Positions 29,745 to 36,319 of a stretch of DNA of 64,000 nucleotides are shown piece by piece; the first letter of the stretch is position 1, and every line of letters begins with the position of its first letter. The position numbers and the translations under genes are program-made. The DNA comes from Planctomycetota bacterium (GTDB taxonomy: Bacteria; Planctomycetota; UBA8108; SXIK01), in the NCBI GenBank assembly GCA_965223845.1, contig CBDCXR010000004.1, positions 7,360,001-7,424,000 on the forward strand, read 5' to 3'. A model generated the notes under the pieces. That model had not been told where the DNA came from. It did not search any database and was given only the letters and a program-made list of their open reading frames with translations.

Positions 29745-29924
29745 TCAGCGCGACCCGCTGCCCTCACGCTTGGGCGAGCTCGCCGCGTCGCCGCCGGGCG
29801 ACGCGCTCGTGCTCGACTCGCTCGAGGAGGTCGAACCGGACTCCGACGGCCCCGGACAGCCGACGAGAAAGACGCTCGCCACGAGCGCGGCGAGAACGGA
29901 GAGACGAAATCGATGGAGGGTCAT
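29745..29924 (-). CDS. Small Ser-rich lipoprotein
   Basis: MTLHRFRLSVLAALVASVFLVG-C lipobox, 59 aa. Confidence 0.55.
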   Translation of the reverse strand: MTLHRFRLSVLAALVASVFLVGCPGPSESGSTSSSESSTSASPGGDAASSPKREGSGSR

Positions 29925-30248
29925 GAGAGCTCGAATTCGAATGGCCCGGGTCGGAAGATCGATCTCCGACCGCTGCGAAGTGACCGATCGCCCCCGCGGC
30001 GATCGCATCGTGCGAACGATCGAGCGGACCGCGAGGTTCCCAGAGTCATCGAGTGCGTTGTCCCGGGCTCGATCGGGTCGATTTCACCGCCGCGCGTGCT
30101 TTCTATCGGTCTGGGGACAGAGTACGGTGAACGGACGAGGAATCGAGGGCGCGGAGCCGAGAATTGCCGGGCGTTCAGGACGCCCGGACAGGTTTCGTCG
30201 CCGCTTCCACGGAAGCGCAGCGGGGCACGGAGAGATCACGGAGGATCG

Positions 30249-33176
30249 ATGACGAGGGTACTTCGATTGAGGGCTTGTGGCGCGATCTTCGTGGCGTTGG
30301 TATTGAGCGCGTCAACCGCGCGTGGAGCCGAAGCCGACCCCGAGTGCCTGGAAGAGTGCGAGCGGGCCGCCAACGCCTCGTTCGAGGAGTGCCTCGAATC
30401 GGACGAAGCCGGTGAAGAAGAGTGCCGTGCGCGTCGCCGGCGGAAGCTCGAGGGGTGCATCGCAGAGCACTGCGAGCCCGATCCACCGCCTCCGCCGCCG
30501 ACGTGTGAGGATCTGTGCGAGAACCACGCCCGCGGAGTGTTCGCGGAGTGCAGGGAAGCAGGTGGTGGTGAGGAAGAGTGCGCTCGCCGCAGCGAGAACG
30601 CGTTTCTCGAGTGCGTGGAGCGCGAGTGCGAGGAACCACCTGAGCCGACGTGCGAGGATCTGTGCGCGAACCACGCCCGCGGAGTGTTCGCGGAGTGCTT
30701 AGAAGCGGGCGGCGGCGAGGAGGAATGTGCTCGCCGCAGTGAGAACGCATTTCTCGAGTGCGTGGAGCGCGAGTGCGAGGAACCACCTGAGCCGACGTGC
30801 GAGGATCTGTGCGAGAACCGCGCCCGCGGAGTGTTCGCGGAGTGCAGGGAAGCAGGTGGCGGCGAGGAAGAATGTGCTCGCCGCAGCGAGAACGCGTTTC
30901 TCGAGTGCGTGGAGCGCGAGTGCGAGGAACCACCTGAGCCGACGTGCGAGGATCTGTGTGCGAACCACGCCCGTCGCGTGTTCGTCGAGTGCAGGGAAGC
31001 AGGTGGCGGCGAGGAAGAATGTGCTCGCCGCAGCGAGAACGCGTTTCTCGAGTGCGTGAAGCGCGAGTGCGAGGAGCCACCTCCCCCGAGCTGTGAGCAC
31101 GCGTGCGAAATCCTCGCGAACGAAAAGTTCGAAGCGTGCCGCGAGGACGGCGGGGGCGAAGAGGAATGTCACCGCGTTCGCCGAACGAGCTTCGCGGCTT
31201 GCGTCGAACGCGAATGCGAGCCGCAGCCCGACTGCGAATCGCGCTGCCGAGCACGGGCGGAAGAGATCTTCGAGGCCTGCCGCGCCGATGGTGGCGGTGA
31301 GGACGCCTGCTGGGAAAACGCCCGTCGCTTCTTCGAAGAGTGCGTCGGCTCCGAGTGCGAAATGGAGCCTCCGCCGCCGCCTACGTGCGAAGACAAGTGC
31401 GAGCGAATCGCGGACGAGCGGTTCGAGGAATGCGTCGCCGCCGGCAACGGCGAGGAGGAGTGCGGCTCCAGGCGACGCGAATGGATTCGTGACTGCATCG
31501 CCGGCGAGTGTGAGCGGCCGGATCCGACCTGCGAGGAAGAATGCCGGCGCCATGCGCGTGAGGTGTTCGGGGCATGTATCGAAGACGGTGGGGAAGAGGA
31601 AGACTGTGCACGACGCGCAGCGAGCGCGCTCGAAGAGTGCGTCGGCGAGTGTCCGAGCGATCCGCCCGACGAGCCGAACTGCGAGGACCGCTGTCGGCGC
31701 GTCGCGGAGGAGGCGTTCGAGATGTGCGTCGCTCACGACGAGGATCCCGAAGAGTGCGAAGCCCGCGCGGGCCGGATCTTCCGCGAGTGCGCGGGACTTT
31801 GCCACGAACCGCCACCCGACGAACCTACGTGCGAGGATCGCTGCCGGCGACGGGCGCGCGCCGCGGTCGAGGAATGCCGTGAAGAGCACCGCGACGACGA
31901 TCCCGAGCGGAAGCACGACGATGATGACGAGCACGAGGGAGACGAGTGCGAAGCGCGCGGGGAGCGCGTCCTCATCGCGTGTCTCCGCGAGGAATGCCGC
32001 CCGCCCGACGAACCGAGCTGCGAAGATCGGTGCCGCCGCCACGCTGCGGAGGTCTTCGAGCTCTGCCGCGCGGAAGGGATGCCGGAGGACGTCTGCGTCG
32101 AGAAGGCGGAGAACGCGTTTCGCGACTGCGCCGAGCGCTGCGAGGGAGAGCCGCCGGAGCCGACGTGCGAAGAGCGCTGCGAGGAGCGCGCCGGCGGGGC
32201 GTTCCGTCGCTGTATCGAAGACGGCGGTGACGAGGAAGAGTGCCGCCGTCGATCGCGCGAGCAGTTCGAGGAGTGCCGCGAGAACTGCGACGATCGACCC
32301 CCGCCGCCGACTTGCGATGACGACTGCCTCGAACGCGGTGAGGCGATCTTCCGCGCCTGTCTCGACGCGGGCGGAGGAGAGGAGGACTGCCGGGCCCGCG
32401 CCGGAGTGTTCACGAAGCTCTGTCTCGCCCGTTGTTCCGGTGGCCCGCCGTGCGAGGACCGCTGCGCGCTCGCCGCGGAGATCGTGCTCGCCGGCTGCGC
32501 CTTCGGCGGACTCCCCGGCGACGCGTGCAAGGAAATCGCGAGCCGCGTGCTCGCGGGCTGCGTGGACGCGTGCGACGTCGAGCCGGAGTCGTGCGAGGAC
32601 CGCTGCGCCGTTCGCGTCGAGCGCGCGATCGCGGACTGCGTCGCTCGCGGCGGCGACGGCGAAGCCTGCGCGGCCGAAGGGGAAGAGCTGAAGCGCGAGT
32701 GCCTCGCTCGCTGCGATGGCGGCGAGCCGCCGCCGCCGTGCGAAGGTGAGTGCGAGGACAAGGTCGCCGACATTGTCGCGGAGTGCATCGCCCGCGGAAA
32801 CTCCGACGAGCGCTGCGCGGCGCTCGGGGAGCGTTTCCTCGAAGAATGCCGCGAGGAGATGGGAGACATCTGTGCCCGCGAGGCGCTCATCGCCGCGGCT
32901 TCGTTTCAGCCGTTTGTCCGAGGAGACGCGAACGAAGACTTCGATGTCGATATCTCCGACGCGCTCATGATCCTCGGTCGGCTGTTCCTCGATACTCCAC
33001 CCGGAGCGTGCGACGATGCGTCGGATGCGAATGACGACGGATCGATCAACATCGCCGACGCGATTATGGTGCTCGAGTACCTGTTCTCGGACGTCGTGAC
33101 GGCGCTTCCGGTTCCGCACGGAGCCCGAGGTCAGGATCCGACGGCCGACAGCCTGCTCTGCGCACCCGCGATCTGA
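30249..33176 (+). CDS. Secreted Cys-rich repeat protein (17 six-Cys repeats) with a C-terminal dockerin-like EF-hand domain
   Basis: Signal peptide after RBS GGAGG. Repeats C-x3-C-x10-C-x9-C-x10-C-x3/4-C with Pro linkers. C-terminal FVRGDANEDFDVDISDA...DANDDGSINIAD. Confidence 0.88.
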   Translation: MTRVLRLRACGAIFVALVLSASTARGAEADPECLEECERAANASFEECLESDEAGEEECRARRRRKLEGCIAEHCEPDPPPPPPTCEDLCENHARGVFAECREAGGGEEECARRSENAFLECVERECEEPPEPTCEDLCANHARGVFAECLEAGGGEEECARRSENAFLECVERECEEPPEPTCEDLCENRARGVFAECREAGGGEEECARRSENAFLECVERECEEPPEPTCEDLCANHARRVFVECREAGGGEEECARRSENAFLECVKRECEEPPPPSCEHACEILANEKFEACREDGGGEEECHRVRRTSFAACVERECEPQPDCESRCRARAEEIFEACRADGGGEDACWENARRFFEECVGSECEMEPPPPPTCEDKCERIADERFEECVAAGNGEEECGSRRREWIRDCIAGECERPDPTCEEECRRHAREVFGACIEDGGEEEDCARRAASALEECVGECPSDPPDEPNCEDRCRRVAEEAFEMCVAHDEDPEECEARAGRIFRECAGLCHEPPPDEPTCEDRCRRRARAAVEECREEHRDDDPERKHDDDDEHEGDECEARGERVLIACLREECRPPDEPSCEDRCRRHAAEVFELCRAEGMPEDVCVEKAENAFRDCAERCEGEPPEPTCEERCEERAGGAFRRCIEDGGDEEECRRRSREQFEECRENCDDRPPPPTCDDDCLERGEAIFRACLDAGGGEEDCRARAGVFTKLCLARCSGGPPCEDRCALAAEIVLAGCAFGGLPGDACKEIASRVLAGCVDACDVEPESCEDRCAVRVERAIADCVARGGDGEACAAEGEELKRECLARCDGGEPPPPCEGECEDKVADIVAECIARGNSDERCAALGERFLEECREEMGDICAREALIAAASFQPFVRGDANEDFDVDISDALMILGRLFLDTPPGACDDASDANDDGSINIADAIMVLEYLFSDVVTALPVPHGARGQDPTADSLLCAPAI
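30498..31085 (+). repeat. Four near-identical 147-bp coding tandem repeats
   Basis: Unit CCGACGTG(T/C)GAGGATCTGTG... recurs at 30498, 30645, 30792 and 30939. Confidence 0.92.
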
Positions 33177-33317
33177 CGACACCCGACGCGCCGCGGTTCC
33201 GCGTGGTCGGAGTCGCGGCGCGTCGGCAAGCGCCGAGAATCCCATGACTTCCCTCGACGTCTCAAAGAGACCGCGGGGCGACTCTCCCGCTTCCGTTCCA
33301 CCCGGACGACGTCCATC

Positions 33318-34568
33318 ATGAATCGCGATTGCGTGAGCTCGGCTTGTCGCTTCGGCGGAGTACTCGTTCTCGTCGTCGTCGGCGGCGTGGCCGCGGGTCA
33401 AGAGGAGAAGACTCTCGAGTCGGCGAAGGGACGATTCGACGCGCTCCGACGAGAGTACAACGTCGCGAGCGGCTCAATTCGGAAGGCCGAAACGGACGAG
33501 AAGCGCAGCGAGGCCGCCGAGGGACTCCAACCGTTCGCGCTTCGGTTCCTCGAGCTGGCGGAGAGGCATCCCGCGGACCCCGACGTCTTCAAGATCCTTC
33601 GCAGTGCGATTCAGGCCTCGGTATCGGCGGACTCGCTCTCACTAACCGCGTGCGAGCTGAACCGGACCTCCCGACCGTCGGCGAGCCGCGATGAGGCCGC
33701 GCGCAAGATCGCAGCGTTCCTACGCCGCAACCATCTCCGAAGCGACAAGATCGTGCCCCTGTGCGAACGGATGCGTTACAGCGTCCGGTGGGAGTTCGCC
33801 GAGTTTCTCGAAACGGTCGTGGCGGAGAGCCCTCACGACGAAGTGCGCGCGGTCGCGACTCTCGCGCTCGCGCAGTTCCTCCGTGCGCGTCTCCACACGC
33901 GCGATCTCGTGGACGATCGACCGGAGTTGATCGAACGCTACGAATCACTGTTCGGCCGCGGGTACGTCCGAACGCTGCGAAAATCGTCCCGCCCGCAACT
34001 GGCCGCGCGGGTCGAAGCGCTGTTTGACAAGGCGGCGGCGTTCGGCGACGTCGAGCTTCCTCACGGTGGGACGGTCGGCGAGCAGGCGAAGGCGGCGCTC
34101 TACGTCCTTCGCCATCTTTCGATCGGTCGGGCGGCGCCGGAGATCGAAGGGGACGACCAAAACGGGAAGAAGTTTCGTCTGAGCGACTACCGGGGCAAGG
34201 TGGTGCTCCTCTATTTTTGGTCCGAGTTCTGACTCATGTGACGGGCCCAATGGCCCCACGAGCGGTCGCTCGTGAAACGACTTCGAGGGAAACCGTTCGC
34301 CTTGGTAGGCGTCAGCGTCGATCCGCCGGGGCGCGAGCCGGAACGACTGAGAGAGTTCATGGCGAAAGAGGACCTCAACTGGCGTACCTTCGTCGACGGC
34401 CGCGTGATCGCGCGGCAATGGAACTCTCCGGCGACGCCGACGTTTTACGTTCTCGATCCCGCGGGTACGATTCGACACAAGTGGGTGGGGAGCCCCGGCG
34501 AGAAGGCCATCGACGCTGCGCTCGAAAAACTGATCCGCGCGACGGAGGACGTCGAAGCCGGACGATGA
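33318..34568 (+). CDS. Exported TlpA/peroxiredoxin-like thioredoxin-fold selenoprotein with a UxxU motif (two in-frame UGA)
   Basis: ORFs 33318..34232 and 34272..34568 share a frame. The junction reads LSDYRGKVVLLYFWSEF-TGA-L-M-TGA-RAQWPHERSLVKR at the CxxC position. SECIS-like hairpin downstream. Confidence 0.8.
34257..34274 (+). promoter_or_regulatory. Putative bacterial SECIS apical hairpin
   Basis: CACGAGC-GGTC-GCTCGTG: 7-bp stem with a GGUC loop, 31 and 22 nt after the two UGAs. Confidence 0.7.
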
Positions 34569-34636
34569 GCTCCGCCGGATGGTTCGTCGCCGATCGGCTG
34601 ACGCCGCGTCCACTCTTCGTCGTCGAGGTGCACCTC

Positions 34637-36319
34637 ATGTCTCGATCCTTCTTTCTGCTGTCCGCCGTCGTTCTCGCCATGCTCGGCCTTCCCGCTTCCG
34701 AACCGTTCGCCCAGGGCTTCGACCGCCCCGTCGACACGCGCTCGACTCGGTCGATGGTCCTCGGCCGACGCGGAATGGTGGCGACGAGTCAGCCCCTCGC
34801 CGCCGAAGCGGGTATCGCAATTCTCCGGCGCGGCGGGAATGCGTTCGATGCCGCGATCGCTACGGCCGCGGTCCTGAACGTCGTCGAGCCGATGTCGACC
34901 GGAATCGGGGGCGACGCCTTCGTCCTCGCCTGGCCGGCGAAGGAGAAGAAGCTCGTCGGCTTGAACGGGAGCGGGAGATCGTCGACGAAGGCGACGGTGG
35001 AGCACTTTCGCGCGCTTGGATTCGATCGCGTGCCGACCTTCGGGCCGCACTCCGTCACGGTTCCCGGCGCGTTTCACGCCTGGGTGACGCTCCACTCCCG
35101 CTACGGGAAGCTGCCGCTCGCGGACGTGCTCGCCGATGCGGTCCACTACGCCGAGCACGGGTTTCCGGTGAGCGAGATCATCGCCGCGAGCTGGGAAAGT
35201 GGACTGCGACACGCTAGCCGGCCTGAATTTGCACGTACGTACCTCGTCCGCGAGGGCGACGGATATCGCGCGCCGCGAACGGGCGAAGTGTTTCGGCAGC
35301 CGGATTTCGCGCGCACGCTCAAGCAGCTCGGTGAGAAAGGGATCGCCGGCTTCTACGAGGGAGAGCTCGCCGACCGCATCGCGTCGTACCTCAAAACCGA
35401 GGGGAGCCTCATCGCAAAAGAAGATCTCGAACGCCACTCGTCGACCTGGGTCGATCCGGTGAGTACCAGCTACAAGGGATTCGAGCTCGCCGAGCTGCCG
35501 CCGAACGGTCAAGGCATCGTCGCGCTCGAGATTCTCAACATCCTCGAGGGATTCGACGTCGCATCGCTCGGGCACAATTCGGCGGAGTACATCCATCTCT
35601 TCGCGGAGGCGAAGAAGCTCGCCTTTGCCGATCGGGACACCTACGTCACCGATCTCGACGTCCGGAAGCTTCCCGTCGAGACGCTGATCTCGAAGGAATA
35701 CGCCGCGAAGATGCGCGCGCGAATCGATCGCGCGAAAGCCGGCGTGTTCGCGAAGTCGACGCTCGAGGTCGGACCGGACACCGTCTACCTGTGCACCGCG
35801 GATTCCGAGGGCAACCTCGTCAGCTTCATCAACAGCATCTACTACGGCTTCGGGAGCGGACTCGTCGTCCCCGGCACCGGAATCTGCCTCCAGAATCGCG
35901 GCGCACTCTTCTCGCTCGAGCCGGAACACCTCAACCGCGTCGAGCCGTCGAAGCGTCCGCTCCACACGATCATTCCCGCGATGATCATGAAGGACGGTCG
36001 CCCGTGGTTTTGCTTCGGAGTCATGGGGGGCGACATGCAGCCTCAGGGGCACGTACAGGTCTTCCTCAATCTAGTCGAGTTCGGCATGAACCCGCAGGAA
36101 GCCGGAGAAGCGGCGCGCGTGCGGGAAGTCGACGGCGTCGTCGCGGTCGAGAGCGGGATCCCCGAGTCCGTGCGGGAGGCGCTCCGGCGAAAAGGACACC
36201 GCGTCGAGTCGCGTCCCGGAAGCTTCGGGGGGTATCAGGGGATCTTGGTCGATTGGGAGAGGCGGGTTTACTACGGGGCATCGGACAATCGGAAGGACGG
36301 GTGTGCTCTGGGGTACTGA
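34637..36319 (+). CDS. ggt: Gamma-glutamyltransferase
   Basis: GMVATSQPLA, GGNAFDAA, EPMSTGIGGD, autocleavage DTVYL, PLHTIIP, GVMGGDMQPQG. Signal peptide present. Confidence 0.93.
   Translation: MSRSFFLLSAVVLAMLGLPASEPFAQGFDRPVDTRSTRSMVLGRRGMVATSQPLAAEAGIAILRRGGNAFDAAIATAAVLNVVEPMSTGIGGDAFVLAWPAKEKKLVGLNGSGRSSTKATVEHFRALGFDRVPTFGPHSVTVPGAFHAWVTLHSRYGKLPLADVLADAVHYAEHGFPVSEIIAASWESGLRHASRPEFARTYLVREGDGYRAPRTGEVFRQPDFARTLKQLGEKGIAGFYEGELADRIASYLKTEGSLIAKEDLERHSSTWVDPVSTSYKGFELAELPPNGQGIVALEILNILEGFDVASLGHNSAEYIHLFAEAKKLAFADRDTYVTDLDVRKLPVETLISKEYAAKMRARIDRAKAGVFAKSTLEVGPDTVYLCTADSEGNLVSFINSIYYGFGSGLVVPGTGICLQNRGALFSLEPEHLNRVEPSKRPLHTIIPAMIMKDGRPWFCFGVMGGDMQPQGHVQVFLNLVEFGMNPQEAGEAARVREVDGVVAVESGIPESVREALRRKGHRVESRPGSFGGYQGILVDWERRVYYGASDNRKDGCALGY

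Follow-up and report, generated by a model that had tools for sequence, protein, structure and literature searches.

The gene considered here lies on the forward strand of a 64,000-nt stretch of DNA (the window) from contig CBDCXR010000004.1 of a Planctomycetota bacterium, at positions 33318-34568. With its two internal TGA codons read as selenocysteine (Sec, U), the frame encodes 416 residues and ends at a TGA; codons 305 (UGA1) and 308 (UGA2) are its only internal stops. This is a real gene, in which both active-site cysteines of a redox protein have very probably been replaced by Sec read from UGA. The explanation that best accounts for the data as a whole, and that is likely to be correct, is that the product is a two-domain, probably exported redoxin with the active site U-L-M-U, and that its mRNA carries a single selenocysteine insertion sequence (SECIS) preceded by a small “helper” hairpin. 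Related genes are described below by the residues at the same motif (UxxU, UxxC, CxxU and CxxC).

Plain open reading frame calling splits the 416-residue frame into a 304-aa fragment and a 98-aa tail. An initial annotation, made from the sequence alone, had proposed that the two are one frame interrupted by TGA-CTC-ATG-TGA, and translation bears this out: TGACTCATGTGA stands at 34230-34241 and supplies the U-L-M-U active site, at the CxxC site of a ResA/TlpA-like domain. The placement of the TGAs in a thioredoxin-fold domain was also correct, since the PF00578 (AhpC-TSA) match covers residues 269-387, spanning both TGAs (81.1 bits against a cut-off of 26). Where that annotation had expected Cys or Sec in homologues, Cys or TGA is found at both positions. 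It had also allowed for the objection that the TGAs are sequencing errors. The assembled contigs of four runs agree letter for letter, although these runs come from one study and at most two samples, and are possibly the source of this DNA. No RNA run was listed among those that carry the stretch, a result with no bearing on expression. Sequencing error is argued against more strongly by the recurrence of both TGAs in 38 other genes.

Homologues of this gene are largely concealed by public gene calls: among the matches listed (120 of 246), 115 of the 119 non-self homologues stop exactly before the first TGA position. DNA recovered by genome and metagenome searches contained 128 motif sites, of which an amino-acid filter placed 92 in the family (39 UxxU, 51 UxxC, one CxxC and one WxxC). 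The other 36, which lack the HERS-like segment, were left out; they are mostly generic CxxC proteins but include a UxxC row, L092. The 39 distinct UxxU genes come from this genome, nine other genomes and 29 metagenome contigs. Protein similarity found 35 of them, and a pattern containing the SECIS found four; three of the eight pattern matches (L159-L161) begin with TGG and have no family motif row, and were left out, as was a weak two-TGA match in genome G038. One UxxU locus, L075, is cut by a contig end. UxxU genes share a median amino-acid identity of 52%. Downstream of UGA1 the frame is open for 104-122 codons in 32 of the 33 genes with a stop on the contig (78 codons in the other), and identity across 32 genes is 0.69, 0.75 and 0.54 at codon positions 1, 2 and 3, which is the pattern of a coding region.

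In a quick tree of 107 rows a single branch separates the UxxU genes from the rest, with a Shimodaira–Hasegawa-like approximate likelihood-ratio test (SH-aLRT) support of 99, or 100 once the motif and hairpin codons are removed. With midpoint rooting the UxxU rows fall among UxxC rows, from which we infer that UxxU arose from UxxC. In a search of representatives, 98 of 155 aligned sites have CxxC, 38 end at the first UGA position and 19 are of other kinds. The two best domain matches, P0122 and P0123, are full length, have CLPC and CLTC (Cys at both positions) and group with the UxxU rows (SH-aLRT 94). They carry an E-to-D change in the HERS motif, where E is kept in 86 of 98 CxxC sites; as a sign of SECIS loss this change in protein sequence is only suggestive. 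P0121 (MGB0580876.1, Limisphaerales), from the UxxU-type clade, ends at C-P-T, which suggests a putative CxxU intermediate form. Active-site neighbors are altered together in the UxxU clade (GP to LT, Tyr to Trp, and GWPT to xTPT), substitutions that would be consistent with retuning of the active site. Five UxxC or CxxC genes (L100, L137, L086, L105 and L111) stand beside a degenerate copy without a SECIS (WxxC, CxxW, SxxS or other). A contig search of genomes with a single UxxU protein returned one unrelated locus only, and the UxxU-plus-SECIS pattern had no match in viral contigs.

The genome encodes the machinery that such a gene would require. The initial annotation had called for a search for selA, selB, selC and selD, and all are present above curated cut-offs: selA at 536 bits (cut-off 267.9), selB at 320 (242.25), selD at 308 (125), and a transfer RNA (tRNA) for Sec at 68 (47), with anticodon TCA and as the one match over the RF01852 cut-off in the genome. 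The genome is 91.7% complete and has one selB over cut-off, a normal tRNA-Trp(CCA) and one ordinary 77-nt tRNA-Cys. Among other genomes with a UxxU gene, selA was found in eight of nine, the miss being a 62% complete genome, and tRNA-Sec was found in all five UxxU-bearing relatives tested.

The SECIS has a perfect 7-bp stem, which begins 24 nt past UGA1 and 15 nt past UGA2; its loop begins 31 and 22 nt past them. Four of its codons, GAG CGG TCG CTC, are identical in 39 of 39 UxxU and 51 of 51 UxxC genes, where background use of these codons is 0.18-0.68. The consensus for bacterial SECIS elements given in PMC13188914 is a loop of 3-9 nt with G in its first two positions, a stem of 4-16 bp, a UGA-to-loop distance of 16-37 nt and a minimum free energy of at most −7.5. 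Checked by hand, the hairpin agrees with this consensus for both UGAs, with a 4-nt GGTC loop, 7 bp, distances of 31 and 22 nt, and −10.5 kcal/mol when folded alone. It is the only conserved SECIS-like hairpin, and it has not moved in genes that have the second UGA. Since no second conserved element exists, one SECIS most likely serves both UGAs, as the initial annotation had proposed. That annotation was also right about the hairpin's sequence, coordinates and spacing. Its perfect hairpin is predicted to give way in longer folding windows, a point weighed below.

Between UGA2 and the SECIS lies a second hairpin, overlooked in the initial annotation, that starts 10 nt past UGA1 and abuts the SECIS. 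All five pairs of this helper hairpin can form in 27 of 39 UxxU genes, and at least four pairs in 37 of 39; under a synonymous-codon null that preserves the amino acids of each gene, the mean is 2.8 perfect stems and the highest of 1000 trials reaches 10. At each of the three synonymous stem positions the bases that allow pairing are favored: the Arg third base is G in 34 of 34 genes (background 0.40), the Ala third base is C or T in 32 of 34 (0.52), and the Pro third base is C or T in 36 of 39 (0.41). UxxC genes have a weaker hairpin of 3-4 bp in a shifted register (−3.03 kcal/mol, against −0.85 in the null). The last SECIS pair is relaxed in UxxU genes, the Val codon ending in G in 14 of 38, against 45 of 51 UxxC genes. 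These data make it likely that the helper hairpin is an RNA element under selection.

Further evidence came from a family unrelated to the redoxins beyond the thioredoxin fold. The Trx7/PDZ (seleno)protein NF041199 is catalogued in PMC13188914 as CxxU, with one Sec. Across 301 genomes of the phylum, UxxU (46 sites) outnumbers CxxU (30) in this family; 91 of 102 matches were used, giving 90 distinct sites (eight without TGA and three with two TGAs were left out). In UxxU genes the segment 12-30 nt past the first codon folds at −5.97 kcal/mol, well below the synonymous null (−2.62; none of 200 replicates as low), unlike in CxxU genes (−2.04 against −2.23; 150 of 200 as low) and 14 CxxC genes (−1.42 against −1.10; 23 of 200 as low). 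At a threshold of −4 kcal/mol, chosen after the data had been seen, a helper-type hairpin is present in 37 of 46 UxxU genes as opposed to 5 of 30 CxxU genes, in varied sequences and registers. Two such UxxU genes occur in this genome (L162 and L163, at G000:C4:863070 (−) and 5876630 (−)), with the motifs U-I-P-U and U-V-P-U; each has a small hairpin ahead of a SECIS with a GGU loop, the order being UGA, UGA, small hairpin, SECIS. While the two families share this layout, their SECIS sequences differ, and so does the common single-Sec form, which is CxxU (the UGA near the SECIS) in Trx7/PDZ and UxxC (the far UGA) in the redoxin family. NF041199 has no match at E ≤ 0.001 in the UxxU protein or in 50 aligned members of its family.

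Sec reaches the ribosomal A site through SelB, which carries Sec-tRNA and binds the SECIS (PMC13188914). In the UxxU gene, loaded SelB would bind the only in-frame SECIS two times, for UGA1 and then for UGA2. The mRNA entry-channel boundary of the ribosome lies approximately where the helper starts when UGA1 is in the A site. Because the helper starts 10 nt past UGA1, near the entry channel, it can remain folded at this stage; it would then sit just outside the ribosome and shorten the 24-nt spacer by 14 nt. By the time UGA2 is read, three codons on, the helper would have entered the mRNA channel and melted, and UGA2 would have a plain 15-nt spacer; the SECIS would be presented at a similar effective distance for both UGAs. 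A collapsible spacer is the likeliest job for the helper, and the chance that this is its job is about even. Eleven single-UGA candidates in the same genome, identified by eye and unverified, have the loop 16-24 nt after the UGA, a range that includes UGA2 (22 nt) and excludes UGA1 (31 nt). More broadly, a “telescoping SECIS” might be a general bacterial arrangement for two Sec three codons apart, with the helper strengthened or gained independently in the redoxin clade and in Trx7/PDZ, a transferable 45-nt cassette and an uncatalogued family of exported diselenide oxidoreductases; we stop slightly short of favoring this wider proposal.

Several observations weigh against this picture. In 72-nt windows of this gene a longer rival helix (approximately 34259-34266 with 34292-34299) is predicted to win over the SECIS, whose probability of forming, P(SECIS), is at most 0.01; in 90-nt windows of the gene P(SECIS) is 0.11-0.66, and in the 12-75 window it exceeds 0.5 in only 26 of the 39 UxxU genes. 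In the redoxin family no two-sided base change was found in the SECIS, where covariation cannot arise because the sequence does not vary, and none was found in the helper. Pairing is no better than in a column-shuffle control (415 of 500 shuffles as high). A CCG swap at the helper Pro codon cuts mean P(SECIS) from 0.96 to 0.37, so mispairing with the SECIS loop is another explanation for the avoidance of CCG there. Two G of the helper come from the Trp codon, and P0122 and P0123 retain this Trp, which may thus be a feature of the protein; UxxC genes have their sole UGA at 31 nt with only the weak hairpin, so a strong helper is not required to read the far UGA. The genes share ancestry (codon usage alone would give a third-position identity of 0.41, and the observed value is 0.54), and UxxU has a single origin in the redoxin family. 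In the Trx7/PDZ tree, UxxU and CxxU interleave with 15-16 changes, but a pair test limited to well-supported branches has four pairs and is underpowered (p 0.5); with all branches there are 15 pairs, a mean of 12.2 being for the association and 2.6 against (median p 0.035, worst 0.18). Recoding in E. coli proceeds at 30-40% per UGA (PMC4513850), and two independent events at that rate would give only ~9-16% full-length chains. Finally, Sec insertion, export, the diselenide and the job of the helper are computational predictions.

The main rival to a spacer role retains Sec insertion at both UGAs from a single SECIS, and proposes that the helper either guards SECIS folding, by sequestering the GGCC that arose with the Tyr-to-Trp change, or pauses the ribosome at UGA1 so that SelB can be loaded twice. 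This is a possible explanation, although we lean against it. In the 12-60 window, P(SECIS) drops too when synonymous swaps make the helper weaker (from 0.97 to 0.68 for Pro to CCG, and from 0.97 to 0.86 for Ala to GCG); UxxC relatives use the far UGA with the weak hairpin only; and the helper starts about where mRNA enters the ribosome. The Arg codon speaks against a guard: a change to CGC leaves P(SECIS) at 0.96 and halves the probability of the helper (from 0.83 to 0.42), yet the third base is G in 34 of 34 genes. Trx7/PDZ genes build helpers from many different sequences, mostly with the far UGA present, and this argues against a guard but not against a pause. It is improbable that the helper is a mere by-product of R-A-x-W-P in GC-rich genes and of shared ancestry, with no role in recoding. 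The single origin of UxxU in the redoxin family, the lack of two-sided changes and the Trp kept in Cys forms would all be expected of a by-product, and synonymous sites are incompletely saturated. Such a by-product does not account for the excess of perfect stems over the amino-acid-preserving null, for the absence of CCG from all 39 Pro codons at the helper site when CCG is used for 768 of 1126 Pro codons after Trp genome-wide, or for the same pattern in the unrelated Trx7/PDZ family.

Other alternatives concern the reading of the UGAs themselves. One or both could be read as Cys by a tRNA of the tRNA-ReC/SelC* type, or as a mixture of Sec and Cys, in which case no diselenide would form. PMC13582414 describes tRNA-ReC in ~56% of genomes with UXXU hydrogenases, and notes that either UGA may be read as Cys. 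Among the five UxxU-bearing relatives, one (G009) carries a 93-nt gene similar to tRNA-Sec but with anticodon GCA (L151:1501-1593; G009:C100:29624-29715). This gene scores 54 bits, over the tRNA-Sec cut-off, and resembles tRNA-ReC/SelC*; G009 also has a canonical tRNA-Sec, a UxxU gene and another over-cut-off match at C270. In the genome studied here the RF01852 match reads TCA, there is one ordinary tRNA-Cys and one selB, and a second tRNA-Sec-like gene was not found, in a search that used no dedicated model and in a genome whose 91.7% completeness leaves its absence unproven. On this evidence, Cys reading is very unlikely. It is barely credible that the TGAs are true stops, leaving a split gene, a pseudogene or the helical fragment only, or that they are read as Trp. 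Public gene calls do end at the first TGA, the 304-aa fragment would be a real by-product of incomplete recoding, and two homologous domains, in L100 and L137, have TGG at the first position. True stops are hard to reconcile with both TGAs and an open, constrained downstream frame being kept in 39 genes as diverged as these, with SECIS codons frozen in all 90 Sec-type genes, and with an ATG between the TGAs in only one of 39 genes. As for Trp, the TGG domains of L100 and L137 have lost the hairpin and adjoin other copies; the genome has tRNA-Trp(CCA), and a TGA read as stop ends the UxxU gene, and apparently selA and selB as well.

The reading of both UGAs as Sec leads to a protein of two domains behind a signal-like leader (Table 1). 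Folding the single sequence gave a poor model (predicted local distance difference test, pLDDT, 47), and an alignment-based model of 50 sequences (mean pLDDT 92.9) was used instead; it places a helical N-terminal domain before the thioredoxin domain, so that the long helical region proposed in the initial annotation now has a predicted structure. The 11-residue Kyte-Doolittle mean reaches 3.1 at the N-terminus, no later 19-residue window exceeds 0.9, and homologues have similar N-termini; on this hydropathy profile the protein is probably exported. The helical domain has no Pfam match in the UxxU protein; among the 50 aligned members, HEAT_2 matches two and TPR-type models match one each. The nearest Atlas cluster has no common Pfam family, and its commonest phylum is Planctomycetota. 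In searches with the whole-protein fold, the matches were taken up by the thioredoxin domain and gave the helical domain no fold assignment. The thioredoxin domain matches ResA by Foldseek (E 2.7e-9; root-mean-square deviation, rmsd, 1.7) and 3gl3_A by VIA-align (Z 20.6, rmsd 1.8, 138 residues aligned), and PF00578 matches all 50 aligned members at E ≤ 0.001. Some family members (P0012, P0017 and P0025; L072, L077 and L085) begin with the tail of another thioredoxin domain or a duplicated helical segment, which suggests tandem forms that could hold more than two Sec.

If recoding were as efficient as in E. coli, much of the product would be a 304- or 307-residue fragment. Judged by analogy, the full-length protein is somewhat more likely than otherwise to cycle between diselenol and diselenide. 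More tentatively, with confidence falling a little below even, it might act as a strongly reducing or isomerizing oxidoreductase for envelope proteins, the helical domain binding the substrate. A passage on SelL describes diselenides as hard to reduce (PMC2397514).

The closest catalogued class is that of PF00578 peroxiredoxin (Prx)-like thiol:disulfide oxidoreductase selenoproteins, with UxxC or UxxU motifs, one or two Sec and the representative WP_010940744.1 (PMC9312934, PMC13188914). As in that class, the UxxU protein has a PF00578 domain, Sec at CxxC positions with UxxU included and a SECIS just 3′, all by prediction only; in this clade, unlike the class as described there, a signal-like leader and a helical domain of 240 residues are also present. 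Going by domain and motif, the two features that define this broad class, the protein is a member of it. The available text of PMC13188914 does not mention Planctomycetes, and the clade is not named in that of either paper. ResA, TlpA and DsbE (CcmG) share its fold (Z 20.1-20.6, rmsd 1.8), active-site position and cis-Pro loop position; they differ in that the UxxU protein has Sec at both positions, a large helical domain and no neighbors conserved by eye, and it scores far below the NCBIfam cut-offs (ResA 55.7 against 170, TlpA 45.3 against 230, and DsbE 23.9 against 123.15). No NCBIfam model is over cut-off for it. On the structural model it would work like ResA/TlpA/DsbE without being filed under them.

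The initial annotation had pointed to SelL as a precedent. The SelL motif is of the UxxU type. SelL is described as a Prx-like protein with a diselenide in its redox motif, found in fish, invertebrates and marine bacteria (PMC2397514). Both proteins have two Sec, predicted in the case of the UxxU protein, in the redox motif of a thioredoxin fold, and SelL is a precedent for the diselenide. By description they differ, the present protein having two domains, one of them ResA/TlpA-like by structure, and a UxxU form that falls with a UxxC family. The thioredoxin fold proposed initially is upheld, with structure pointing to ResA/TlpA/DsbE, and the protein is not filed as SelL; the likeness to SelL would be by convergence at most. 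Two UGAs three codons apart also occur in UXXU Group 4 [NiFeSe] hydrogenases, for which a single 3′ SECIS serving both UGAs has been raised, with additional factors possible (PMC13582414), and UxxU occurs in “Prx-like 2” of the Global Ocean Sampling (GOS) survey (PMC2398784). These are different protein families, and the available text of PMC13582414 describes no helper hairpin. The core of the finding is therefore less new than the initial annotation implied, because UxxU in PF00578 proteins is catalogued and one SECIS for UxxU had already been proposed. A search of open-access full-text literature, supplements excluded, found no description of this UxxU clade or of the helper hairpin; the available text of PMC10778597, PMC4807772 and bioRxiv 10.1101/2022.07.06.499078 has nothing on the clade.

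Table 1. Features of the UxxU gene; positions are those of the window.
Feature	Position	Strand	Basis
Complete reading frame	33318..34568	+	Translation; listed homologues stop before the first TGA position
Signal-peptide-like N-terminus	33318..33398	+	Basic start, hydrophobic core at ~residues 11-25, VAAG before the presumed cleavage site
All-helical N-terminal domain, ~residues 28-266	33399..34115	+	12 predicted helices in the alignment-based model
ResA/TlpA/DsbE-like thioredoxin-fold domain, ~residues 269-410	34122..34547	+	PF00578, Foldseek, VIA-align
First UGA, predicted Sec305, N-terminal (attacking) CxxC position	34230..34232	+	TGA in 39 UxxU and 51 UxxC genes
Second UGA, predicted Sec308, resolving position	34239..34241	+	TGA in 39 genes of a single branch; TGC/TGT in 51 of 51 UxxC relatives
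Helper hairpin GGGCC-CAAT-GGCCC, 5-bp GC stem, 4-nt loop	34243..34256	+	Pairing kept in UxxU genes
SECIS hairpin CACGAGC-GGTC-GCTCGTG, 7-bp stem, GGTC loop at 34264-34267	34257..34274	+	Codons of H-E-R-S-L-V
Pro374 at the cis-Pro loop position	34437-34439	+	Pro in at least 90% of 50 aligned rows

Upstream of the gene, at 29913-33176 (+), is a Cys- and Glu-rich repeat protein of ~1000 residues with a dockerin-type C-terminal domain, which is not conserved beside homologues. Downstream, at 34637-36319 (+), is a gamma-glutamyltranspeptidase with a signal-like leader, which was not seen beside homologues; a link to thiol metabolism is possible. Inspection by eye of 17 UxxU loci, those with flanks of sufficient length, showed no conserved gene neighborhood, and no sigma-70-like promoter was found in 33100-34700.

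Elsewhere, the genome looks rich in selenoprotein genes, as far as sequence can indicate. SelD (G000:C4:5317241-5318161 (−) and upstream; L010) follows an NADH-dehydrogenase-like domain in a fusion protein and contains a CxxC motif; Ndh-SelD fusions are described in PMC2398784. A full-length UxxC paralogue, 32% identical and with the same SECIS core, lies at G000:C4:339054-340223 (+) (L164), and its sequence marks it as a putative natural single-Sec control in the same cell. In-frame TGAs in redox-like motifs, with a hairpin loop 16-24 nt 3′, were also observed on C4 at 336114 (−), 2926988 (−), 4433634 (−), 4984549 (−), 6700190 (+), 6804409 (+), 6836567 (−) and 7864292 (−). At 7833748 (+) of C4, a small lipoprotein-like frame contains U-I-U, with UGAs two codons apart followed by a 7-bp hairpin. 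ARAGORN reported tRNA-Pyl(CTA) candidates at G000:C4:1643846-1643919 (−) and 6791124-6791203 (+), both poor-looking matches.

How one position-dependent SECIS serves two nearby UGAs is the question raised by PMC13582414. The UxxU gene offers a compact natural test of it, in a 45-nt segment that holds the two UGAs, the helper and the invariant SECIS and for which UxxC and CxxC genes serve as natural controls. Should the helper work as proposed, selenoprotein engineering could draw on it as a design rule for recoding two Sec codons. The clade has been hidden in databases, with 115 of 119 homologues among the matches listed cut at the first UGA, and its members are soluble candidates for extracytoplasmic diselenide redox chemistry.

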